Shown: positions 418 to 61,967, counted from the whole stretch's first letter. The stretch is DNA of 63,434 bases, filler included, from Asterionella formosa (GCA_002256025.1; 25 parts of 25 records of this genome joined end to end with filler, not necessarily neighbours in it), one strand, 5' to 3'. Translations and numbers: made by a program. Notes: generated by a model from the letters alone, not told the origin.

Positions 418-1511
418 CGAAGTAACTTCGACACAATTACCGTCTCGTCCGTTTCGTCTTTCTCCATATGTAGTCTGTGTAGTACTAGCTTTGTGGGTAC
501 TTAGCTGCAATATATAAAATCGACCCATCAAATACTAGAATAGCGAGCCAGAAATACTAAGTAGAAGTAGCATAAATGGTTTTTGAATTCGGTGCTAAGT
601 AAACGTGTCCTTTTTCCAAAATCCGGGTTCAAAATGCGGATCCAATCTCCGGGTTCTGCGGCAGTCGAGTTGCGCTTTGCCGTGGGAGGGACGTAGGGTG
701 GGTGATTTTAGACTATAAATTGCGAAAGGCTTGGCGATGCTTTAGACTGCTTCTCTGAATTGTTATTCAAAGAATTGTGTGCTTCACCCTTGCACTAATT
801 CACTTGTTTAACCTCGCGTGGTTGCTCTTGTCTTCCCTTGTCTTAGCTGCCGATTCTTGGTTGTTCGATTCAACTCTAAAAGCTAGAACTTAATAGTCGC
901 GTTGTCGCTATATTGAATTCTCAGCTTCGACTCCTTCGATTCGCGTCGCGTGGTTTGTATCATCCGGTGCTCGCCTGATATACTAACTCCATCGCGTCCG
1001 TCCTTGTCCGTAATATCAACGAAGTAACTTCGACACAATTACCGTCTCGTCCGTTTCGTCTTTCTCCATATGTAGTCTGTGTAGTACTAGCTTTGTGGGT
1101 ACTTAGCTGTAATATATAAAATCGACCCATCAAATACTAGAATAGCGAGCCAGAAATACTAAGTAGAAGTAGCATAAATGGTTTTTGAATTCGGTGCTAA
1201 GTAAACGTGTCCCTTTTCCAAAATCCGGGTTCAAAATGCGGATCCAATCTCCGGGTTCTGCGGCAGTCGAGTTGCGCTTTGCCGATCCACTTTCCAGTCA
1301 CGACGAATTATGTTAGATGAGCCGTGGCATGCGCGTCTCGCCCTGCCATTGTCGATCGAGATGTGAATGCTATTGTATTTGCCGGCGGATGGAAGAATGT
1401 CGTTGTCGTGATCATCTTTTGGCTAACTGACTTCGTAAATTCCGCCACTTGCTTACGGATGTAAATTAGAAATGCGTCCGATTTCCAGCGACCAATTAGC
1501 ATGACCATGTA
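418..1511 (-). mobile_element. 3' end of a Ngaro-like tyrosine-recombinase (YR) retrotransposon with split direct repeats (B1-A2-B2)
   Basis: YR C-terminus at 1308-1511 is followed, in element sense, by a 265-bp direct repeat (1020-1284 and 418-682; 2 mismatches seen) flanking a unique segment 683-1019. Confidence 0.75.
1308..1511 (-). CDS. Tyrosine recombinase C-terminus (partial)
   Basis: MLIGRWKSDAFLIYIRKQV matches the GRW-x-S-x-A-F-x-x-Y-I-R catalytic-Tyr box of DIRS/Ngaro recombinases. Confidence 0.85.
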   Translation of the reverse strand, partial: YMVMLIGRWKSDAFLIYIRKQVAEFTKSVSQKMITTTTFFHPPANTIAFTSRSTMAGRDAHATAHLT

Positions 1512-1611
1512 NNNNNNNNNNNNNNNNNNNNNNNNNNNNNNNNNNNNNNNNNNNNTTAATTAATTAANNNNNNNNNNNNNNNNNNNNNNNNNNNNNNNNN
1601 NNNNNNNNNNN
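1512..1611. other. Artificial contig-joining linker (N44-TTAATTAATTAA-N44); first of 24
   Basis: Same 100-bp block with stops in all six frames starts at 1512, 3123, 4734, 6344, 7954, 9564, 11174, 12784, 14394, 16003, 17612, 19221, 20830, 45754, 47363, 48975, 50583, 52190, 53797, 55404, 57011, 58617, 60223, 61829. Sequence on either side is not contiguous. Confidence 0.98.
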
Positions 1612-2456
1612 TCACCATGGTGGTGACCAGCAACTGCCATTCCATCGCCATTGTACACCTCCTTTTGTTGCTATTCCCACTCCTGCTATGACTGCTACTG
1701 CCGATCCAGCATTCTGTGATGAAGTTTGAGATTCTGCAGGTAAGCAATTGGATGCGAAGCTCATGATTTATGTAATGCTCTGACGATGATGGTGCCCTAT
1801 GAAAGTGTAAAATATAAAGTAAAAAGAAAAGAATTTTTGAAGTATAAACGGAGTAGAAATAAACATGGTTCCGGCGGAAAATATATTCATATACAGATAG
1901 AAAAATATGCACTGTAAGCCACCGCTATGCGATAATCTTAGTGACTTTGGAAATTTTTTATCTCATGACTAGATACACTGAATCAACACTGATTCCTTAA
2001 TAGTATAGCAGAGAGCATCGTCTAACAAATACTTTGTACTTGCATCAAGTTTTGATTGTTGTCTTACATAAATATTTTTAGTCGGAAGATAGAGAAAAAT
2101 AACGATGGCATACAGGTTTTACGTGGTACCTATTTTACAGTCCTCAACAGCATGCATGAATGGAACATGATTCTTCCTTTCAGACAGGGAAAAAAAAAGC
2201 GATGCAGGCTTTGAAAAAGCAGCAAGCAAGGAGCAGAGGAACAACACAGGAAATAAATATATGGAAAAAATACTTTGGAGAACAAACAACAACCAAACGA
2301 CGACAAACATTAGTTCTCCATCCATCCATCTATCTATCCATCCATCTATCAGTAGAACTTTGAGTCTGTTGTACCGGTACTAGTCAGTAATAGTACAACA
2401 CACCAGCCACATCAAAAGAAAGACCGAAACAGAACTGAACAAAGCACACACACACG

Positions 2457-3122
2457 ATGTTGTCAGCTTTCATCAAACGCAAAAAGAGTAGCAAAGTTTC
2501 CAATTCCGCGTCCACGATCAATCCTAATTCTGATGATGGCACCATCACGACCACAAAAAAAACGACTGCTACCTCTCGTCTTGGAGCCGTAAGTGTGAGT
2601 GGGAACTCGACTGTCTTTCGTGTGACTGTTCCAGAAAGTGTCCAACCTGGAGAAGAATTTCAAGTCTATGCTGGAGGTCGAATTGTTAGAGTTCGTTGTC
2701 CAATAGATTCTAGACCTGGACAAGCCTTGCAAATTACAGTCCCAGCAGCTCCTCCTCCTACTACTACTACTTCTCCTCCTGATGGCAATACCAACAACAA
2801 TACCAACAACAACAGTCTACTACAAGATTCACCAAATGTTCAACCCATTCAAGATGGACATCAAGGAGGGCCCACTGCTTACATGGTTACCATTCCTGAT
2901 GGCATTCGAGGAGGACAACAGTTCCCTGTCACTATTCAAGGACAACAACTCATGGTAACTTGTCCACAAAATGCTAGACCAGGTATGAATGTTCGAATTG
3001 TACCACCACCAACCAGTACAGACATTACCAGTCGTACCAGTATGAATAGTAATACCAGCAACCACAGCAACAACAACAATAACATGTCATCACCACCGCT
3101 ACCAATTAGAGACCAAGACAAG
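2457..3122 (+). CDS. Hypothetical protein with repeated VTVP-x-G-x-x-PG/GG-x-x-F-x-V...CP modules (3' truncated by contig end)
   Basis: ATG-initiated ORF open to the contig end. Two related modules (FRVTVPESVQPGEEFQVYAGGRIVRVRCP; YMVTIPDGIRGGQQFPVTIQGQQLMVTCP) separated by N/T/P-rich linkers. Confidence 0.75.
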
Positions 3123-3222
3123 NNNNNNNNNNNNNNNNNNNNNNNNNNNNNNNNNNNNNNNNNNNNTTAATTAATTAANNNNNNNNNNNNNNNNNNNNNN
3201 NNNNNNNNNNNNNNNNNNNNNN

Positions 3223-4152
3223 CGAGTCTTGATTTTTAGAAATGACCGCAACGAACAAGTGCTGCGCTTCAGGGTTCATGAAACGGAACAGTGCACATTG
3301 CAATCATCGACCATTGCTACGATTCTGTATTTGGCATGCGATGCTGCTACTGCTGGTGGTGGTGGTGGTGGTGGTTTTGATGATGATTATAATTCAAGAA
3401 CAGCCTTCTTTCAAGAACGTGTGCTGGAGCTCAACTCTCAATTGGGACTTGCAGGATTGTTGGGAGCTCTTTGTGTGGAAGTTGTTACTACCACCAATAC
3501 TAGCAACAACAAGGACAAGGACGAGATTGACATTTTACCCGAAAAGACCAAGAAAACAACGAAATCTCCCTTTCCTTCTACTCTCACCTCCCTCACACTG
3601 TCTGACGATGACCCCAAGGCCTTGCATTTGGCTGCCATGAATGTCAAACAAGTGACAACAGACAATCGTTTGGTCAAACTGCTGGAATTAGATTGGCGTC
3701 ATCATCCTCGGATGCATCCTGGGAAACAATTGTATCGTAGTATTTTGGGATCAGACTTGTCGGAAAACTTTCCCACAGTCAAAGAATTGGCCCGGACTGT
3801 GGCCTATCATCTGGAACCTCAGATTGGTCGATTTGTTCATGTTGGGCCAGATAGTCTGTTGCTGTCCAAATTCTTGAATGAGGGGTACTTGATGCGTGTC
3901 GATGCCAGGTATGTTACTTTGGAATCTCATATTTATCATCAACAAGTCTTGCCAGAGGGTGAAATGCCTGTCAAGGAATTCGAACTACAACGTGTCAAGG
4001 AGCAAACGATGGAAGTGCTCCATGCAACGCATCATCCTGACTATGATGGAATCAATGGTGAATTCTTTTTTCCCATGGAGACGGGGACTTTTGAAAATCC
4101 AGCTCCAGACAAGTATTTGGAAAAGGAACGTGGCCCAAGTCCATGGAAATGA
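3223..4152 (+). CDS. SAM-dependent methyltransferase-like protein (METTL21/family-16-like, degenerate motif I), 5' partial
   Basis: Frame open from contig start. RVLELNSQLGLAG, LTLSD, LELDW and ILGSDL resemble family-16 methyltransferase motifs. Confidence 0.6.
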   Translation, partial: RVLIFRNDRNEQVLRFRVHETEQCTLQSSTIATILYLACDAATAGGGGGGGFDDDYNSRTAFFQERVLELNSQLGLAGLLGALCVEVVTTTNTSNNKDKDEIDILPEKTKKTTKSPFPSTLTSLTLSDDDPKALHLAAMNVKQVTTDNRLVKLLELDWRHHPRMHPGKQLYRSILGSDLSENFPTVKELARTVAYHLEPQIGRFVHVGPDSLLLSKFLNEGYLMRVDARYVTLESHIYHQQVLPEGEMPVKEFELQRVKEQTMEVLHATHHPDYDGINGEFFFPMETGTFENPAPDKYLEKERGPSPWK

Positions 4153-4287
4153 ACAAGAACGATGGATTCCATCACTGAATGACAAACATAAACACTACGT
4201 AGACTCAAGAGTTACCAATGTGATGGTTACAACATTAACGATTCCACAAAATGAATTCTAGGAACGGCTATAGTTAGCTTTCGAGCG

Positions 4288-4733
4288 TTACCAAACGAAG
4301 AACTTCTTCTTATTCAAAATGGCATCCATTTCCCTCTTCATGGCTTCAGTTTCCTCAACTGCAGCTGCAGCCCGATCTTCCAAAAGTTGTACTTGCTCCC
4401 GAGTCTTGGCGAAATTGTCGTTTTGCTCATTCTCGAGTTGTCTAATATGTTGTTGGAAAGCTTCAATAGATTCTTGATACCCTTGCATGGTTTCGATCAA
4501 ACGAGTCACAATCACCCCGGCAGATAAAAGTGCACTGACTTGATCTTGTTCGGTTGTAAGGTTATCTTGCAACTGACGTACCAGCAGTATTTCATCTTCG
4601 GACGTTTGGACTCTACAAGATTCCAATTCCGTAACTTGACTGGCATGTTGCTCGCGAAGGGTCTGGACAGTGCTACGAAGTACTCCAACTTGTTCACCAT
4701 CATCATCATCATCTGCCGCCGCGGCGGCGGCTG
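4288..4733 (-). CDS. Coiled-coil protein C-terminus (5' partial)
   Basis: Frame stays open upstream to the contig edge (AAAADDDDGEQVGVLRSTVQTLREQH...). E/Q/K/L heptad composition; convergent with the previous gene. Confidence 0.65.
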
Positions 4734-4833
4734 NNNNNNNNNNNNNNNNNNNNNNNNNNNNNNNNNNNNNNNNNNNNTTAATTAATTAANNNNNNNNNNN
4801 NNNNNNNNNNNNNNNNNNNNNNNNNNNNNNNNN

Positions 4834-5530
4834 CCAAAACTTTTGCCTCAGTGTGTCGCACCTGTAAATTGAGACGAAGCAAGCCCTTCGAGATGTCCAA
4901 GAGCAATCCTGGACGATCTGGAGCATCAACTCCAACAACGAATGCGCGATCGTGACTATCCGAAACGACAACAATTTTAGAAGGACTTGTCCCTGTCTCG
5001 CCAGCCGCCAAGGGAGTGCGCTCCCTGATTTGGTCGGTAATCTTATTGATACTTCTCTGACGCTCTGATTCGTCATACTCAATCATTGACTCTTTCGTGA
5101 CACCGACTTCAACAGGAAAATCGTCAGCAACTTCAGAAGATTGCAACTGTAGATCGTCCTTCACTTCATTCGTCACGACTTCAAGACCGTGCTCCTCACA
5201 GAATTCTCCAAACTCTTCGATGAGCCCGGTGAAGTACACGATGTCTCCAACAGACAGGACAAAATCTGGACTGACGGCATGATGGACATTGCCTGTCGAA
5301 GCACGGTGTACACTGACGAGATAGATGCCACCAGAGTCTCTCAAGCCAGAGCGCTTGACAGTTCGTCCTGCCGCAGGTGACCATGGTGTCAACCTTGCTC
5401 CCAACAAGAGCTCATCGGCGTCCGTTAGTGGATCCAATGCATGATTCTTGGAGGCCCGACCCCCAGGCAGGGAGAATGGAGCAGCAAGCATAATGTACGC
5501 CAAACCAAAAATCGCAACAGGGACACCATA
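4834..5530 (-). pseudogene. SLC13/sodium-sulfate cotransporter (SLT-like) fragment with TrkA-C and ACT-like domains, interrupted by a Copia LTR
   Basis: TM segment YGVPVAIFGLAYIMLAAPF-LPGG, TrkA-C (SPAAGRTVKRSGLRDSGGIYLVSVHR...VLSVGDIVYFTG), ACT-like DAPDRPGLLLDIS. The frame runs directly into the LTR at about 5530. Confidence 0.8.
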
Positions 5531-5992
5531 TGATAAAATATATGGAATCCAACGAATCGAGAATCAATATTCTTAGTAGTGATTAGAAACCAAGACCCAA
5601 AACATCTCGTCATTTATTGACAAATGACTGGAGATGTTTACTTATTGACAAATGACCGGACTGGAGATGTTTACTTATTGACAAATGACTGGAGATGTTA
5701 CTTATTGACAAGTGAATCAGATGCTCACTTATTGTCAAAAGAATAAGTGCTGCTCACTTATTGTCAAATGAATATGCTTACTTATTGTCAAAGTAAGCAA
5801 GATCATTTTGACGGGATCAAGGAAAGTGTGAGAAGTCTTGTTCGGGATTACATGAGTAATCAGGCAAGAACAAGACTAGATAGACTATTAACAGAAAGCT
5901 CACAATATTACAAAGTGTAAAGTGAAAATACGTTTTCAGCTTTAGAGATCTTAAAAGTAAGATCTGTGATATTTCAACTAGACAATTTAACA
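5529..5992 (+). mobile_element. 5' LTR of a Ty1/Copia (CoDi-type) retrotransposon
   Basis: Near-identical second copy starting TGTGATAAAA at 52025 with different flank defines the left edge. Ends ...TTTAACA 31 nt before the gag ATG (right edge inferred). Confidence 0.75.
5612..5793 (+). repeat. Tandem ~25-31-bp repeats (ACTTATTGACAAATGACTGGAGATGTTT) inside the LTR
   Basis: About 7 progressively diverging copies of the TTATTG(A/T)CAA core. Confidence 0.9.
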
Positions 5993-6023
5993 CGTTTTAA
6001 AACGAACCTACAGGTCTAGAGAC

Positions 6024-6343
6024 ATGGTTACGGCCGATGAGAAATCAGGTGAGACTGTTCGCTTGATCAAGTTTGATGGAAGCGAAGCTGCTTGGCATGA
6101 GTGGAGTATCAAGACTCTTCAGCTTGCGAAATCTAAAGGTTTTAGGCATGTTTATGCCAAAGACACGAAGCCAATCGACGATGATGCCTATTTGGTGTCT
6201 ACTGATGATGACGAGAAGAAGAAGTATGAGTTGAATGACAAGGCATATCAGCTATTGATTCTTAGTGTCAGTGGGATTGCATTTGGGATTGTGAATTCTG
6301 CCAAGACAGATGATTTGATGGATGGAGATGCTTTTCTTGCCTG
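6024..6343 (+). CDS. gag: Copia Gag N-terminus (partial)
   Basis: LIKFDGSEAAWHEW ... NDKAYQLLILSV ... GDAFLA, a typical Copia Gag N-terminus directly after an LTR. Confidence 0.85.
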
Positions 6344-6599
6344 NNNNNNNNNNNNNNNNNNNNNNNNNNNNNNNNNNNNNNNNNNNNTTAATTAATTAAN
6401 NNNNNNNNNNNNNNNNNNNNNNNNNNNNNNNNNNNNNNNNNNNTGATGGATGGAAATGATGAGCCAAATTACATTACTTGAACTGGTTCATTATCCTACC
6501 AAGAAATTCGAATACAGGAATCAAATAGAAACAAAACATATAATAATTAAATATATGTAGTCAAAAGGGTAACTATTTAAATTACAAAGGCATTTATCA

Positions 6600-6690
6600 A
6601 AATTATTAGATGATATAACAAAATATTATGATCAGATGATCACAATCCTATGATGCATCATGGAAATATGATAGTTTTTATTTGCAGACG
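6600..6690 (+). mobile_element. Terminus of the TA-targeting TIR element family (see 32515-35383)
   Basis: Similar to 35299-35383; ends TATTTGCAGACG followed by TA. Confidence 0.7.
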
Positions 6691-7744
6691 TAGCCACCAC
6701 TGGCAGACAAGAAAGATGAAGAGGTTTTGAGGCCTTGTAATGACAAAGGGCTTGTGACAAGTGTGACAAGGCGTGGCGTTGTTGTTCGGTGACAGGAGCT
6801 TTTATGAAGCAATCAAAAATGTGCTTTGGCGGAGAGAGAAAGGTTCCGAAGTTTCAGAGGCAAGGGTTTTGACAAGACAGGCTTCCAGCGGGATTGCCTG
6901 GCTGCTGTACTGAAGGGGAAGACTGTGATGGTCTCCGTTCCGGTCTTACCAGTTGAATGACAGCAATGTGAGTTCACAAATTTATGAAGGTTCCAATTCA
7001 ACAACTAGCAAGTTCTGCGATTTTTTTTTTGGGGGGGGGGGGTGGCTGACGTACACCCATAGGGTGTTTCGCCAATTAAATTTATTCACATTCACTAGGC
7101 GTGGTCCACAAAACAGGAAAAGTACCTGGAGATTTTAAGAAGTTTACGGTATATAGGGGGAGTAACAAAATGGTCCTGGTAAGTAAAAAAGAAACTATAC
7201 AAATAAAGCGGAGCAATCAGAATACCGGTATCCTGGTTGGCTGGTTGGTACCAGGTAATGTCCCTGCAAGATGCGGTCATTTTGAAAGATTATAATGAAC
7301 ATATAGAATAAAGATAGCGGGATGTTTAATTTCAAAACAATTACCAGGTACCGGAACTTGCTGGTACTCTCTGGTACCTCGCTTATTTCTATCCATCGAA
7401 TGATCTTTTGTCGTGTACAAGACCAAAACTATGGTAGGTATTGAGAGAGAAAGAAAATTGTATGCAAGAATTTATTTATATATATATATATAATTCCGGC
7501 ACTCTGCTATTCACAATACTACACCTATGCATTACTGGGCATGAATGCATTTGTAGAGCAAATTACTCATCCATAGATGAAAACTCCATGAGATTTCCGC
7601 AACAAATCTAATCAGCCTACTGGTATACTCTTGTGAGACGTCGACAAGAATCAAAACGAGCACAAAATCAAATTCCAGAACAAAGAGCTTGAAATACCAT
7701 AGCGAATAAGGCTTCCTCGTTTCCAGCAATAACGAAAAGCAGCA

Positions 7745-7953
7745 ATGGACGAGATGAATCCCCTTTGTTGGCCGCGTCAAGGAATCAATAGGCCTCATGC
7801 AAATGATGTCTTGTATGGACGAGGAAGAGGAACCAACCATCGTAAGTATCTTCAACCGCAGAATGATATAACCTCCTTGTACCTCGAACTGATTTCTAGG
7901 AATTCTAGTTCTTAACCTGCTACCTTTCTTGATCCATTTCTCAGATCCAGGAA
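7745..7953 (+). CDS. DUF6824-domain protein, 5' part (exon 7745-7841, intron 7842-7944, exon 7945-)
   Basis: Spliced translation MDEMNPLCWPRQGINRPHANDVLYGRGRGTNH|HPG fits the DVL-x-GRG-x-x-x-N-x-HPGN motif; GTAAGT...CAG intron. Not in the ORF track. Confidence 0.8.
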
Positions 7954-9958
7954 NNNNNNNNNNNNNNNNNNNNNNNNNNNNNNNNNNNNNNNNNNNNTTA
8001 ATTAATTAANNNNNNNNNNNNNNNNNNNNNNNNNNNNNNNNNNNNNNNNNNNNACCTGTGTGTCAGAATGTGTCTGTCAGGCTGTTGATGTTGACAGGTG
8101 TCCGAAGACTAGATGTAGTAGGAATTGGAATATACGGGTATGCTATCACAGCATCAGCAGTTGGTTGCGTTTTGTTAAATACAGGCAATGTCTTGTATTA
8201 TGACAGAAAGTATTCAATTCCTGGTAAAGGGCGGGAGGAGTTCACTCACTACGAGCCATGATTGTATCCTTTGGTGTTGGTAGTAGCATATCAAACCTTC
8301 TTTTGGGAGGAAGACATACTTGCCACAAGGAATTACTTTTTGAAAGTCTGGCTGTGCCAGCCATAGAACAACAAATGACACTTGTGGTCGGATTTTTCAA
8401 TTTCTTGTGATCAAGCACTGTTCAATCAATGCAAATGTTACATTTTCGAAGAGATTTTCGGCATTGAAGAAATGCAATCTCATTGAAACTTTTCTTCAAA
8501 AGAGTACCTTTCCCTTACTAATAGATACCCATCCCTCCAATGTGTTGCCAGAAATCATGAAAAAAATGGAATTAATGTTTCCCGAAACTCCAATTTTTCT
8601 GTACTAATTGATCTGATCTGGAAGTGTGGTGACCATAGTGTGTTGTGTGGTGTTCAGGTACATATTTCCAAACACCACAATGTACTGAAAAAGTTTGCAG
8701 AAATGTGTAAAAAGGCGAGATGGCTTGAAAAATTCAAAAAGATTTATTTGCTATATTCAAGTCCTGAACAATGTGCAGCTAATTCCGTTCAATGCCTTAG
8801 TATTCCTAAAACACAGGGACAACAAATCACAGTTGTTACACTAGTATATCATGCAAAAGCAGTATACCCTGTCTCAGCCAAGTCTCTGCAACGGCCTAGA
8901 AAAGGTTGTGAAGAAGGTAGTTTTTGCAGTATTTGGGGTGAGGGGAGTTTGTCTTCTAGGGGTCATGTACATGTAGTGCTAAGGACCTAATCTAGAGTCT
9001 AGAGACCATTATGAACTGCTTATGAATACACTTAGTACTACCTGGTACCGTTACAGTTCAAGGTTCACTACGGTATGCTGTCCGCAATCTATTTATGAGA
9101 GAACATTGAAAATTAACTTCGTCTGGTAAAATACGACCGGTATACTCCTACGAGTATGACATACCGGTACTCGGACCTGTCCATATTTTTGTGAATGGTT
9201 CACATACATTGTTGATTAATTAATATGTGTTTTGTATACACACATGCGGACAAATATTCGCAAAAGTCGGACTTTCCCGGAACTCCCAGGGTGTACAATC
9301 ATACACGCCACGCAGTAGGATGCTGGATCGCAAGACGAAGTTGTATTCCATATGACTATAAATATATATGTATACAAGATCCTGTATGTAGAAAACAAGG
9401 TTGACAAAAGTACCATGACAGCAAAAGAAAGCATGTGCCGATATAGTAGAGTAACTGGTACATGGTACTGGAACCTGTTTCATGATGGTACATTCACAAC
9501 ATTGCTGACCCTTCTTTATATATTGACAGAAGGTTCTCCTCTCCTTTCCTCTCCTTTCCTCTCNNNNNNNNNNNNNNNNNNNNNNNNNNNNNNNNNNNNN
9601 NNNNNNNTTAATTAATTAANNNNNNNNNNNNNNNNNNNNNNNNNNNNNNNNNNNNNNNNNNNNAGGGTCGTTCTTATCATTTTTTTTCGTGTATCACGGA
9701 ATTTGAATTTTTTTGAAAATGTATCAGCAACGGTAACTCGATTTGAACTGAATTTCATTCATTCCAAAAGTGTCACTGTATCACTAATTTGTGATCACAT
9801 TGTATCATGGAGTAAAATGAATCTTCAACGGCAACAGGCTGGCGAAGATCATGTGTATATCCCTCCAGAATATAATGATGGTCTTGATATCAAGCAACAA
9901 CAAAATATAATTACCGGGAAACTAAATATAATATTAAAAACACACATTTGCATGAATC

Positions 9959-10582
9959 ATGTCGTCGCCATTTGATTTACTTGATGATAATGACGATGAC
10001 AGTAGTGATCTTGATTTCTTCTTCCTCTGTCATTTAACTAAGGAAGCAGAGGAAAAAGAACACTCATCCAAACGACAAAGGCGACGCTGTAAACGGCAGC
10101 TTCAGTCATCTGAACGACGACGACAACGAAGGCACAAGTGGCACCACGAAAGAATCTCCTGGCAATCACATGTCGAGAAACTCAATCACGAGATTGCTTT
10201 CGAGAAGACATACAGAATGTCACACAGAGCATTCAAAAAACTCACCTCCATGCTGGAAATTCAGATTGCAGGGAATTATTCCAAATGTGGCACTTCTGAG
10301 CCCATAATTCCCGAAATTGTGGTAGCCATTGGTTTGCGATGGCTGGCTGGTGGCAGTTACATCGACATTCGTCATGCCTACGGTTGTAGCATTGCTTCAC
10401 TTTATCGATGTCGTGATTTGTTCATTGATGCTGTACTAAACTGTGAAGAACTCGAAATTATTTTTCCAAAAGAAAAAGAAGAATTTATCAAATTGGCTTC
10501 CAGCTTTGAATGCAAAAGCTCAGAGGGCGTGATGAGAGGATGTGTTGGTGCTATTGACGGCTTCCTTGCCACCATCAACCGC
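9959..10582 (+). pseudogene. Harbinger DDE transposase (DDE_Tnp_4/HARBI1-like), truncated after the first catalytic Asp
   Basis: FEKTYRMS-x-x-x-F-x-x-L, GLRWLAGGSYIDI, GCVGAIDG. Sequence after about 10582 is the antisense of ORF2. Confidence 0.88.
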
Positions 10583-18769: not shown

Positions 18770-18900
18770 ACTTCTCAGAAGTACGCGAACCTCGCAGACA
18801 AACATGCGACCACAGATTCGCATGATATCATGAAAATAAACAGCGTGGTCTGTGCATGATACACATTTGGAATTTTTCAAATAACGAGGAAGTAAGGAGT
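18770..18900. repeat. Dispersed repeat family, also at ~53095-53245 and ~53420-53577
   Basis: Shared AGAAGTACGCGAAC...GTCTGTGCATGATACACA...GGAATTTT...GAGGAAGTA(C/A)GG. Confidence 0.7.
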
Positions 18901-19079
18901 TTCTGTTCGTACCGGGTACCGGTTACTCCGATACTGTCTGTACCAGAACGTACATAAATGTGTTATTACCAGTAGGTATACCCCTTAGTTTCTGTTCGTA
19001 CCGGGTACCGGTTACTCCGATACTGTCTGTGCCAGAACGTACATAAATGTGTTATTACCAGTAGGTATACCCCTTAGTT
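18898..19079. repeat. 89-bp tandem duplication
   Basis: Units start at 18898 and 18987; one mismatch seen. Confidence 0.95.
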
Positions 19080-19321
19080 CTTCCGAAGTTAACTACCGGT
19101 ACCGGTAATCTAAATCCCCAGTTTCTCTGTCAAACAACATCTGTCGGTCCGTTTGCAAGTGCTCGTTCCTCCTTCCGCCCTGATAGTTTCCCGTCCATCC
19201 CAATATACTTACCTTACTGCNNNNNNNNNNNNNNNNNNNNNNNNNNNNNNNNNNNNNNNNNNNNTTAATTAATTAANNNNNNNNNNNNNNNNNNNNNNNN
19301 NNNNNNNNNNNNNNNNNNNNG

Positions 19322-20137
19322 TCACTCAAGACTGCAATGTTATATGTTGAGGATGCAGATGCCCAGCTAGCAATTGCCCACATACACAACAATCATTTAA
19401 ACAAAGTGCGTACATTCAAGTCTATATTTGTCAAGGTGACTACAGCTACACTAGTATTAAACCTACCATCGGTGGTTTTTCAGTGCGAAATTTCGGAGCT
19501 TTCTACAAGGTATGTACATGATCGATTGAATGTCCCAAGGTCACACCCAAGCTCCTTCAGTCCTGCGCACATCTGTACCCTTGCTATGAGCTACGTACGG
19601 CCGCAGAATGCCAATGAACAGCTCGAGTTATTTTTGAACGAGCTAGCTACCCCTCGTGCAGAAAAATTACGCAGCCTGATCAACATTGTGGTACATGCAC
19701 GAGTTATGAAGAATGAAGAAAATCGGATGTATTCTAATGCTATTGCTGCTACTACAAGTTATCAAGATTCAACAAAGGAAAACGGTTCTACTAACACAGT
19801 TTATGCAATTGGAATAACGGATGCTGCTACCATGCCCACAGCACCAAAGAAAAACCGGAAAAGTGGGTCCATAGAATTTGACGAGATTTTTGAGGTTGCA
19901 AAAACGAAAAATTCTCATGAGAAGCTTGAGTTGATCTTGAATCTTGCAAGAAAAATGGAGCGTCTCCTCCACTCAGATGTCACTGAAAGGATGCGACTCT
20001 TTGATGTAAAATTCATCAAGCCGATCATCGCATGCTTCCTGAATCATTGCGACAGCAACAAAGACACTTTCCACAGTCTCCATCCCCAGTTCCTCCACTC
20101 AAAATTCTCCAAAGGTTGCGGATGTAGCAAAGGTTGA
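19322..20137 (+). CDS. Hypothetical protein C-terminus (5' partial), possibly TE-derived
   Basis: Frame open from contig start; Cys/His-containing tail PIIACFLNHC...FSKGCGC. No family recognised. Confidence 0.55.
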   Translation, partial: SLKTAMLYVEDADAQLAIAHIHNNHLNKVRTFKSIFVKVTTATLVLNLPSVVFQCEISELSTRYVHDRLNVPRSHPSSFSPAHICTLAMSYVRPQNANEQLELFLNELATPRAEKLRSLINIVVHARVMKNEENRMYSNAIAATTSYQDSTKENGSTNTVYAIGITDAATMPTAPKKNRKSGSIEFDEIFEVAKTKNSHEKLELILNLARKMERLLHSDVTERMRLFDVKFIKPIIACFLNHCDSNKDTFHSLHPQFLHSKFSKGCGCSKG

Positions 20138-20449
20138 TTGTAGAGTAAATTGGTTAGTAAAACAAAAGAAATTGCATGTTAGCGATAGCAAGAACCAGTG
20201 ACCGCTTTCAATCATCACATTTGGTGAGTTTGCTGTTTATTTGCATTTCTGTGTGGTGATGTGCAAGATGCAACGTTGGAGATGAATATTGAAAAGGTGT
20301 GTTAAAGTGAGCTCATCTACGTAGTTAGGACTCGGAGTCAAACGAGTCAAACGATTCGAATGAGTCCACTTTGATGTACCAAGCTCTCATCAACCACACA
20401 TTATACTTTGCTACTCCGACTATAATGAGCCGGACAACATAAGCTATTT

Positions 20450-20829
20450 CGGAAGACCGATAGTTTGAAATGAATGATCATGGTTAAATACCTATGATCA
20501 GTAAGTGTGAGATAGACATGGGTCTATCTATGATTGTATGTTCCTAGAAATGCAAACAGCATTTGGAGAATAGTTCGTTTGTTTTGTTCAAACAGAACAA
20601 CCTAAACTAGATTAGTAAACTCACAATAAGAATATAGAAACGGAAAGAGAAACGAACGTCTCTATCTATAGTCTTCTTTGTCTAACGATATAGATCTATA
20701 CAAAAAGGTAATACTTTAACACGTTTATAAACGGACTTAAGTGTTTTAACATGTCTACAGAAATGTCTGAAGAGAGCATGAGGCTCATCAAGTTTGATGG
20801 CAACGAAACGAACTGGTACCAGTGGAGCG
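20450..20829 (+). mobile_element. Second Copia family: 5' LTR (ending about 20721; left edge uncertain) and gag start at 20751
   Basis: MSTEMSEESMRLIKFDGNETNWYQWS is homologous to the Gag at 6024, with the same TTTAACA-CGTTT junction 29 nt upstream of the ATG. Confidence 0.75.
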
Positions 20830-45753: not shown

Positions 45754-46357
45754 NNNNNNNNNNNNNNNNNNNNNNNNNNNNNNNNNNNNNNNNNNNNTTA
45801 ATTAATTAANNNNNNNNNNNNNNNNNNNNNNNNNNNNNNNNNNNNNNNNNNNNTGCTTCGTCAGCAAAAGGCAAGGTGGCATCAATACTCTTCTTTTTTG
45901 CAGTTAGAGAAGGTTTTACTGCACTTACGTGATCACATTGGCTGCCTTTCTTGATATCCTTTTTATCGTCGTTCATAATGTTGATTGAATATTGTGTTTA
46001 ACGAACAGGATAACCACAACAGTAAGAAAAGATTATGTGAAGAATATAATATAAATAATTAATCAAACCAGCAAAATATCGGAAGCAATATTGCTCAAGG
46101 GAGGTTCGGGAAATGAAGATTGTTGGTTTGAGCTTTTTTGCCGTAAGGTTATTACCATGGGTATAATAAGAAGGCTATGTTTCGCTTTATCCCGGAGGCA
46201 GAAATCTTGAAATCCTTCTTTCAAGGCTTGTTTCTGCAGGGACAGTATATGTAAATTGCACAGTTCTCGGTACCTGGTACCTGGTGAAGGTCCTTTTACC
46301 TGCTAGGAGCACCAGGTTACCCTGGTGTCACCCTGGAACCTGGTACCAGGTACCTGG

Positions 46358-46552
46358 TGAGCAATCCTGCACATCGATACAGATATATATAGAGTTAGGG
46401 TTATATCAAATACATCGGAATTCAATAATGAGAGAACCCGACTAACATCCATTCTATACTTTGATGACAGTTCAGGAAATGAGTTGTACATAAGGATTAA
46501 TTTATAAGCTCATATATTCAATAAATACTACTACTTCTAGTTAGATACTTCA
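46358..46552 (+). mobile_element. Probable 5' LTR of a Ty3/Gypsy element
   Basis: TGA...TCA boundaries, TATATATA and AATAAA inside, 40 nt before gag. Edges inferred from a single copy. Confidence 0.55.
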
Positions 46553-52024: not shown

Positions 52025-52189
52025 TGTGATAAAATATATAGAATCCAACGAATCGAGAATCAATATTCTTAGTAGTGATTAGAAACCAAGACCCAAAACA
52101 TTTCGACATTTATTGACAAATGACTGGAGATGTTTACTTATTGACAAATGACTGGACTGGAGATGTTTACTTATTGACAAATGACTGGA
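52025..52189 (+). mobile_element. Second copy of the Copia LTR start (same family as 5529-5992)
   Basis: Near-identical to 5529-5693, begins TG. Confidence 0.9.
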
Positions 52190-61828: not shown

Positions 61829-61967
61829 NNNNNNNNNNNNNNNNNNNNNNNNNNNNNNNNNNNNNNNNNNNNTTAATTAATTAANNNNNNNNNNNNNNNN
61901 NNNNNNNNNNNNNNNNNNNNNNNNNNNNAGTTAAATTTATTTTTACTGTGAGATCAAAGTAATCTAA

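Follow-up and report, generated by a model that had tools for sequence, protein, structure and literature searches.

The window analysed here, a stretch of 63,434 nucleotides (nt, filler included) from Asterionella formosa (GCA_002256025.1), holds two sites, A and B, that are the 5' ends of Ty1/Copia elements. At both, a long terminal repeat (LTR) ending in TTTAACA is followed directly by a perfect 12-nt palindrome and, shortly after it, by the start codon of gag. The window is made of joined pieces, and the two sites lie on different ones, A on 4834-6343 and B on 19321-20829; the pieces are roughly sorted by size from 1511 down to 1506 nt, plus one piece of 24,824 nt (20930-45753). The linkers between pieces are 100 nt long and consist of N runs around TTAATTAATTAA (1512-1611, 3123-3222 and so on to 61829-61928); features can therefore not be assumed to be neighbours across any linker. 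Together with relatives from a metagenome scan (loci L001-L015, described below), the two sites define five families, A to E, with an intact start codon. The features of sites A and B are:

5531..5992, plus strand: 5' LTR of family A, 462 nt, TGATAAA...TTTAACA; start set by a second copy at 52027-52189, end set by L002
5993..6004, plus strand: 12-nt perfect palindrome CGTTTTAAAACG, family A
6024..6343, plus strand: gag start of family A, 106 codons, 99% identical to the 1509-residue Copia polyprotein P0001
20300..20721, plus strand: 5' LTR of family B, 422 nt, TGTTAAAG...CTTTAACA, with an 8-nt terminal inverted repeat
20620..20628, plus strand: CTCACAATA motif, found in the LTRs of all families 92-127 nt upstream of the LTR end
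20715..20721, plus strand: LTR terminus TTTAACA, invariant across the five intact families
20722..20733, plus strand: 12-nt perfect palindrome CGTTTATAAACG, family B, at the position of the primer-binding site (PBS); proposed self-complementary PBS
20735..20742, plus strand: ACTTAAGT, the "second palindrome" of family B, at chance level; overlaps the 3' arm of the bracket stem described below
20751..20829, plus strand: gag start of family B, 26 codons; complete element in L009

Direct reading of site B gave TTTAACA at 20715-20721, CGTTTATAAACG at 20722-20733, a single G at 20734, ACTTAAGT at 20735-20742 and the ATG at 20751-20753, exactly the layout that an earlier note on this DNA had described. 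CGTTTATAAACG is identical to its own reverse complement and ACTTAAGT is a perfect 8-nt palindrome. Site A reads TTTAACA (5986-5992), CGTTTTAAAACG (5993-6004, again a perfect palindrome of 12 nt) and ATG at 6024. The sole difference between the two 12-mers is the central dinucleotide, TA at site A versus AT at site B, and each equals its own reverse complement; the same note's remark that the centre changes while the palindrome stays perfect agrees with this. The common 16-mer AACACGTTTWWAAACG occurs only twice in the window, at sites A and B. Palindromes of 12 nt are not rare as such (89 were listed in the window, including 24 of the linker sequence TTAATTAATTAA and 15 of (TA)n), and the signal therefore lies in position and covariation and not in existence alone. 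The two gag starts break off at 6343 and 20829 because their contigs end there, and a tblastn search with the 1509-residue polyprotein matched these two gag starts only, with no further element copy in the window.

The Copia assignment follows from the polyprotein and from the element ends. P0001 (family A) contains the Pfam domains Retrotran_gag_2 (34-210), zf-CCHC, Pol_BBD (384-462), an integrase SH3-like domain (749-809) and RVT_2 (999-1228), and its precomputed annotation also includes an rve domain; by Pfam, a single polyprotein thus shows the Copia order of gag, protease, integrase and RVT_2. The same domain order was found in L009, a complete family B element on a circularly permuted contig, and in L008, which contains complete family E elements. 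The LTRs have TG...CA ends with a short terminal inverted repeat and a polypurine tract at the LTR, as in Copia elements; the purine run directly 5' of the LTR is GGGAGGG before TGATAAA in family A, AAGGAGAG before TGTTAAAG in family B and AGGGAGGA before TGTCAAG in family E, whose LTRs read TGTCAAG...TTTAACA. In L002 (family A), identity between the 5' and 3' LTR ends exactly at ...TTTAACA, where the 3' LTR continues into flank. The start of the family B LTR is marked by contigs from four runs that link the internal end ...GGAACAAGGAGA to 20300, others parting from the flank at 20299, and the same junction is present in L009; its end is marked by 11 contigs of the RNA-library run X16, which diverge after 20721/20722. 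In all five intact families the palindrome begins at +1 after the 5' LTR, the position of a primer-binding site.

Relatives were collected by one metagenome scan with two gag peptide patterns derived from a 5-sequence alignment, which returned the 15 loci L001-L015. Being anchored on gag, the scan was blind to the leader sequence. Gag-anchored scans of viral and prokaryotic contigs found no relatives. The leader set was drawn from 14 loci with upstream DNA, the two window sites and the two L008 units, and comprises 17 instances with 8 distinct sequences; L014, whose contig begins within gag, was omitted. The gag N-termini of the five families with an intact start codon are 57-75% identical, and their palindromes are:

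Family A: CGTTTTAAAACG, window, L001, L002, L003 and L007 (5 instances)
Family B: CGTTTATAAACG, window and L009 (2 instances)
Family C: CGTTTATAAACG, L005 (1 instance)
Family D: CGTTTATAAACG, L006 (1 instance)
Family E: CGCTTGCAAGCG, L008 unit 2 (1 instance)

In the family E variant, C-G has replaced T-A at pair 3/10 and GC has replaced AT in the centre, and the result is again a perfect palindrome. The three variants (CGTTTTAAAACG, CGTTTATAAACG and CGCTTGCAAGCG) thus amount to three double changes with no uncompensated one, and the pair cells of the five intact families are Watson-Crick in 30 of 30 cases. Eight positions of the 12-mer are invariant and the other four change pairwise only, while the surrounding leader can no longer be aligned. 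At its two ends the palindrome keeps CG...CG; the preceding base is A and the next base A or G, so that the palindrome does not extend further. Across all 8 distinct leaders, 93.8% of the cells are paired versus 84.9% in shuffles (4 of 500 reach the observed value), and the covariation score is 0.375 versus 0.181 in shuffles (3 of 500). At slid control positions, 31-50% of the cells are paired.

As a null we used the pattern TTTAACACGNTTNNAANCG, in which pair 3/10 and the central pair are left free. Scans of viral and prokaryotic contigs with this leader pattern yielded chance matches only, 113 in viral and 114 in prokaryotic contigs (227 in all), none of which adjoins a Copia gag. Both free pairs were complementary in 12 of the 227 matches (5.3%, against an expected 6.25%), and this rate per variant gives a chance of about 0.003 (0.0028) for the two derived variants. 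The three variants, the null control and the decayed counter-examples discussed below support selection on self-complementarity itself. The earlier note had drawn this conclusion, in place of a match to a fixed tRNA, from two sequences, and had proposed a covariation check on the leaders of related families; the third variant CGCTTGCAAGCG with its 30 of 30 Watson-Crick cells and the covariation score of 0.375 versus 0.181 over 8 distinct leaders both speak for it. The opposite pattern, a broken palindrome with a retained tRNA match, was not found, as the copies that break the palindrome read as decayed and none of them gains a TGG site.

The palindrome is itself enclosed by a predicted stem. 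In all five intact families, a stretch at the U5 end pairs with the leader past the palindrome over 6-8 bp of family-specific sequence. Both sides have the same or nearly the same number of unpaired nt, giving symmetric internal loops. These bracket stems are:

Family A, 5978..5983 / 6014..6019, plus strand: CTAGAC / GTCTAG, 9/9 nt unpaired; 158 of 5000 shuffles
Family B, 20710..20716 / 20739..20745, plus strand: AATACTT / AAGTGTT, 7 bp including one G.U, 5/5 nt unpaired; 170 of 5000 shuffles
Family C: TAGATAC / GTATCTA, 7/7 nt unpaired; 35 of 5000 shuffles
Family D: GTGTAAGG / CTTTACAC, 9/9 nt unpaired; 34 of 5000 shuffles
Family E: TGCAGAA / TTTTGCA with an inner GAATTT / AAGTTC, 10/11 nt unpaired; 115 of 5000 shuffles

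Combination of the five shuffle results gave a Fisher p of 1.1e-5. When the two halves were swapped between families, a score of 6 was reached in 1 of 20 combinations versus all five native ones (Mann-Whitney p = 7e-4). RNAalifold, run on an ungapped alignment, independently predicts the bracket stem and an apical hairpin, with compensatory change in 5 of 11 pairs. In the decayed copy L004 the bracket stem is lost (2547 of 5000 shuffles). The stems of families B, D and E use G.U pairs, and the structure therefore belongs to the plus strand, most simply as RNA.

The conserved leader had originally been described as a double palindrome. Its first, 12-nt member holds in all five intact families; a conserved second one was rejected, being absent in families D and E and at chance level in A and B. 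The site A counterpart ACCTACAGGT (6006-6015) is imperfect, with 4-bp arms flanking a non-complementary AC, and neither A (229-452 of 5000 shuffles) nor B (513-917 of 5000) is individually significant. Significance was reached in family C only (9-22 of 5000), where the second palindrome competes with the bracket stem, and the combined Fisher p of 0.007-0.027 is driven by C alone. A palindrome at the tip of a predicted U5-leader stem-loop describes the leader better than a "double palindrome".

Priming of LTR retroelements follows a textbook model with tRNA primers, to which Tf1-type self-priming is the known exception. TGG is absent at 0-5 nt past the LTR in all five intact families, all of which begin with CG there; therefore no tRNA 3' end fits. 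No tRNA gene was found in the window or in L001-L015, and Rfam and tRNA scans of the window and the loci were empty. Compared with whole elements, G.U allowed, the 12-mer has no pairing stretch longer than 10 contiguous positions other than its own sequence. Two matches of 10 nt were found, one to a stretch of the L009 coding region and the other to the decayed palindrome of L008 unit 1; in families A, B, C and E the longest non-self matches, elsewhere in the elements, are 9-10 nt (G.U allowed). Among the matches listed, there is no complement of at least 8 nt inside an LTR of A, B, C or E and no pairing of at least 8 contiguous positions downstream of the palindrome, hence neither a Tf1-like 5' partner nor an equivalent of CHSeq2, the downstream sequence of the fungal GalEa elements compared below. 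With no partner beyond 10 nt except itself, the palindrome would have to pair with a second copy of itself or fold back. Throughout the sequences compared, the only partner that co-varies with the palindrome is the palindrome itself.

In retroviruses and LTR elements, the U5 end of the new LTR is the start point of minus-strand synthesis. The LTR ends at the base before the palindrome, and therefore the 3' end of the primer must pair with the palindrome's first bases. These vary by family and always match the palindrome's own 3' half, which makes the palindrome itself the simplest primer. From this border we infer, as a strong argument, a priming role, and on balance we favour reading the palindrome as a self-complementary, element-encoded, non-tRNA PBS at the tip of a U5/leader stem-loop. 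The predicted hairpin of the 12-mer is marginal (-0.1 kcal/mol in A-D, -2.5 in E), and its predicted homodimer reaches -11.8 to -21.1 kcal/mol. The two central bases could not pair with each other in a hairpin, yet they are complementary in all variants (TA, AT and GC). Pairing between two packaged RNAs is therefore favoured, and the palindrome probably serves as a tRNA-independent self-priming site that acts in an RNA dimer.

A possible course of events would be as follows. The genomic RNA would pair via the palindrome, most likely in a 12-bp duplex with a second packaged RNA and less likely in a fold-back hairpin. One strand would then be cut just 3' of the palindrome, with the element's RNase H as the cutter by analogy with Tf1, where RNase H activity makes the primer. 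Base-paired from the outset with the partner palindrome's first base, the new 3'-OH would prime minus-strand DNA into U5, and the same duplex could double as the dimer linkage. We infer the cut, the enzyme and the choice of trans over cis priming from the Tf1 analogy.

Several points weigh against a self-priming palindrome. The palindrome is broken in 7 of the 17 leader instances: L004 (TGTTTATAAACT), L013 (CGTTTATAAACA) and the five of type F (TACTTGCAAGCG; L008 unit 1, L010, L011, L012 and L015). We read these as decayed copies. The open reading frame (ORF) of L004 is split into three pieces, and type F has lost the ATG and has an LTR end of TTGAACA. The breaking changes are mostly transitions at CpG, and in none of these copies (L004, L013, L008 unit 1/L010-L012/L015) was a TGG-type site gained. 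L011 has its upstream flank in common with L008 unit 1, and at least these two are therefore duplicate samples of a single genomic locus. Despite its broken palindrome, L008 unit 1 has an ORF that is otherwise open across 1494 codons. The variants number only three, with changes in only two lineages, and sampling is narrow, since all relatives came from one scan with two gag peptide patterns. The read evidence consists of contig assemblies in all four runs, which are uninformative on RNA ends and strand and contained no trace of a cut behind the palindrome or of snap-back cDNA. Priming in trans would sacrifice one packaged RNA and require an RNA/RNA cut that, to our knowledge, is known from Tf1 only. 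A match to the internal part of some host RNA was excluded by argument, not by search, and symmetric change is also what a DNA site for a dimeric protein would be expected to undergo.

The strongest competitor, which we nevertheless regard as unlikely, holds that the palindrome is only a dimer-initiation or packaging signal, of the type of the retroviral dimerisation initiation site (DIS) or of Ty1 PAL, and that some other, unrecognised primer is used. Such a signal would account for the perfect self-complementarity that includes the central pair, for the strong predicted homodimer (-11.8 to -21.1 kcal/mol) next to a weak hairpin, and for the display of the palindrome at the tip of a stem-loop. 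It finds no space for a separate PBS, however: the LTR ends one base before the palindrome, the 17-39 nt from palindrome to ATG are not conserved between families except for RAYY, and no family has TGG within 0-5 nt past the LTR. Moreover, synthesis must begin at the palindrome's first bases, where any primer would have to match three different sequences.

We consider it very unlikely that the hairpin and bracket stem form a structural origin for reverse transcriptase, with protein or de novo priming like that at hepadnavirus epsilon. The stem-loop architecture is conserved with family-specific arms and no external primer candidate was found, as such an origin would predict; yet a hairpin needs no complementary central pair, which is complementary in all three variants, and the hairpin alone is barely stable (-0.1 kcal/mol). 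Plus-strand transfer would also have to proceed without a copied PBS, and we know of no LTR element with protein or de novo priming.

Less probable still is a DNA-level binding site for a dimeric protein, either a host factor or an element protein, just inside the 5' LTR. The half-sites of a homodimer site would change together, which is the symmetric change seen, and the conserved CG...CG ends would suit such a site. It leaves unexplained why the palindrome adjoins the LTR end exactly, why no PBS is present and why there is a surrounding stem, whose G.U pairs are workable only in plus-strand RNA or single-stranded DNA, and the protein would have had to co-evolve three times.

An ordinary tRNA or half-tRNA PBS with incidental palindromy is highly improbable, even though Copia elements normally use the initiator tRNA or half-tRNAs. 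A tRNA arm has a 7-nt loop, so a gap-free 12-nt palindrome is not the complement of a tRNA arm; TGG is absent after the LTR in every family, and the three variants would need three self-complementary primers at a chance rate of 5.3% per variant. Priming by a half-tRNA, that is, by an internal part of a tRNA, is argued against by the three co-varying variants only. In a plant survey, tRNA-Met was the most frequent PBS type and half-tRNA types occurred in some Copia lineages (PMC6317226). Least credible of all is an inherited block whose paired changes arose by luck without selection on self-complementarity: only two lineages changed and one dinucleotide event could account for the central TA/AT swap, but the flanks diverged beyond alignment while the 12-mer kept 8 positions and changed the other 4 pairwise only, the empirical rate of 12 in 227 gives 0.0028 for two derived variants, and the palindrome is lost in decayed copies.

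Other features of the elements were recorded alongside. The LTRs of the families had been thought to have no other obvious similarity, which is not quite right: every family has the AGCTCACAATA motif in its LTR, 92-127 nt upstream of the LTR end (window 5897-5907 and 20618-20628; also L005, L013 and L008). The AGCTCACAATA-like motif is overlapped by AATAAA/AATAAG and followed about 15-30 nt downstream by a small family-specific hairpin; it could be a transcription start or a poly(A) signal. The U3 part of the family A LTR (window 5590-5800) contains several imperfect tandem units of about 30 nt (...ACTTATTGACAAATGAC...), which may be enhancer-like repeats. The elements are very compact, with a polyprotein ORF that runs from 17-39 nt past the palindrome up to the 3' LTR (L002 4640-4663; L008 5440-5495); in family A the stop codon TGA is formed by the first three LTR bases, and the polypurine tract is coding sequence.

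L008 carries at 447-10419 a tandem array (LTR-internal-LTR-internal-LTR) whose units recur every 4964 nt and are 97% identical. In unit 1 the LTR is longer and contains ATCATGCATATC repeats, the palindrome is decayed and the ATG is missing; unit 2 is intact. In L004, L005 and L009 the first 67-158 nt of the contig recur at its end; these contigs hold one LTR and the internal region in circularly permuted form and could represent collapsed LTR pairs or 1-LTR circles. At 20299/20300, one contig in each of four runs exits the flank at 20299 into CACATGCGCAAC..., others carrying the LTR. The exit looks like an empty-site allele or path, and the family B insertion may therefore be polymorphic and recent. 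Six RNA libraries contain the family B stretch; with the alternative contig paths at the insertion site, the elements appear to have been recently active. Family B was found in runs labelled algae and freshwater, river, lake, estuary and drinking-water metagenomes, plus two coded organisms. The contig joints listed in the read comparison fall upstream, inside the LTR.

A separate set of GGTACC-rich palindromes of 12-16 nt (ACCGGTACCGGT, ACCTGGTACCAGGT, TACCGGTATACCGGTA and others) is scattered on many contigs and on a metagenome relative (window 170, 19094, 21940, 28439, 37889, 46338-46358, 51585, 51682, 54248 and 57431; L008 1-120), and may represent a further repeat family or a motif that is constrained in its own right. 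At window 18898-19075, an 89-nt unit occurs twice in tandem with 99% identity and contains GTACCGG-type motifs as in these palindromes.

Literature searches found no palindromic PBS feature in algal or diatom Copia elements, and the term "palindromic PBS" was unattested. The main text of Maumus 2009 (PMC2806351, without its supplements) and a 2021 paper on a diatom re-assembly (PMC8147415) mention no primer-binding site, tRNA or palindrome; the sole "PBS" in the former is a wash buffer. LTR-annotation tools that require a tRNA-matching PBS will score elements of the present kind as defective.

Among known systems, the canonical Copia PBS is alike in its place directly after the 5' LTR and its length of about 12 nt, and unlike in that the present sequence does not begin with TGG, complements itself and differs from family to family by compensated changes. 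The canonical site, such as TGGTAGCAGAGC in metazoan GalEa (PMC5445492), complements the initiator tRNA-Met at its 3' end. The retroviral DIS is described in the same paper as a self-complementary leader sequence (PMC5445492). The retroviral DIS and Ty1 PAL are similar to the present site as self-complementary 5'-leader sequences on a stem-loop with a strong predicted homoduplex; they differ in that theirs coexists with a tRNA PBS and usually lies in a loop, whereas here the palindrome occupies the PBS position. Palindromes also occur inside retroviral PBS regions.

Likeness to Tf1 lies in tRNA-independent priming by the element's own RNA (here proposed), in a PBS that co-varies with an element-encoded partner and in surrounding RNA structure. 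The Tf1 partner is the first 11 nt of the transcript (PMC5445492). By contrast, among the matches listed no complement of at least 8 nt lies in an LTR here, and a partner at the transcript start was not found. Self-priming of the Tf1/Sushi type has also been proposed for TAR, a plant Copia lineage (PMC6317226).

Closest to the present site among the precedents comes the Conserved Hairpin Site of the fungal GalEa elements, with which it agrees in principle but not in detail. According to PMC5445492, these Copia elements lack a PBS; behind the LTR they carry 9 nt that form a palindrome once the last A of the LTR is included, and variants of the site differ at positions 3 and 6 (CTGATCAGT versus CTAATTAGT). 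CHSeq2, inverse-complementary to the first sequence with an A/A mismatch, lies 12-41 bp downstream according to the text, although one row of supplement file 3 gives an interval of 6, and a more extended hairpin, its internal loop at the LTR junction, is reported for 5 of 8 elements (PMC5445492). The authors stated in 2017 that no known model fits the hairpin site (PMC5445492).

The present elements are likewise Copia with no tRNA-type PBS and a conserved palindrome directly past the 5' LTR. The variants differ by paired substitutions in both, and in both the palindrome is presumed to replace the PBS and may belong to a more extended hairpin that has an internal loop at the LTR junction, which here corresponds to the bracket stem of all five families. 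In contrast, the present palindrome is 12 nt long and wholly outside the LTR, and that of GalEa reaches 10 nt only with the LTR's last A; no CHSeq2-like downstream site is present here among the matches listed, its place being taken by the U5-leader stem; and the host and the LTR ends (TTTAACA here) differ. It is possible, if somewhat doubtful, that a whole Copia clade does without host tRNA and uses reciprocal self-priming in trans, with dimerisation and initiation of reverse transcription as one event, in which case the GalEa hairpin would be a second instance. What the present elements add is clean compensatory evidence for selected self-complementarity and a logical constraint, namely that the LTR border coincides with the start of the palindrome and the primer must accordingly be sought in the palindrome; together, these would turn an open puzzle into a concrete, testable mechanism in a second, unrelated-looking Copia group with a GalEa-like theme.

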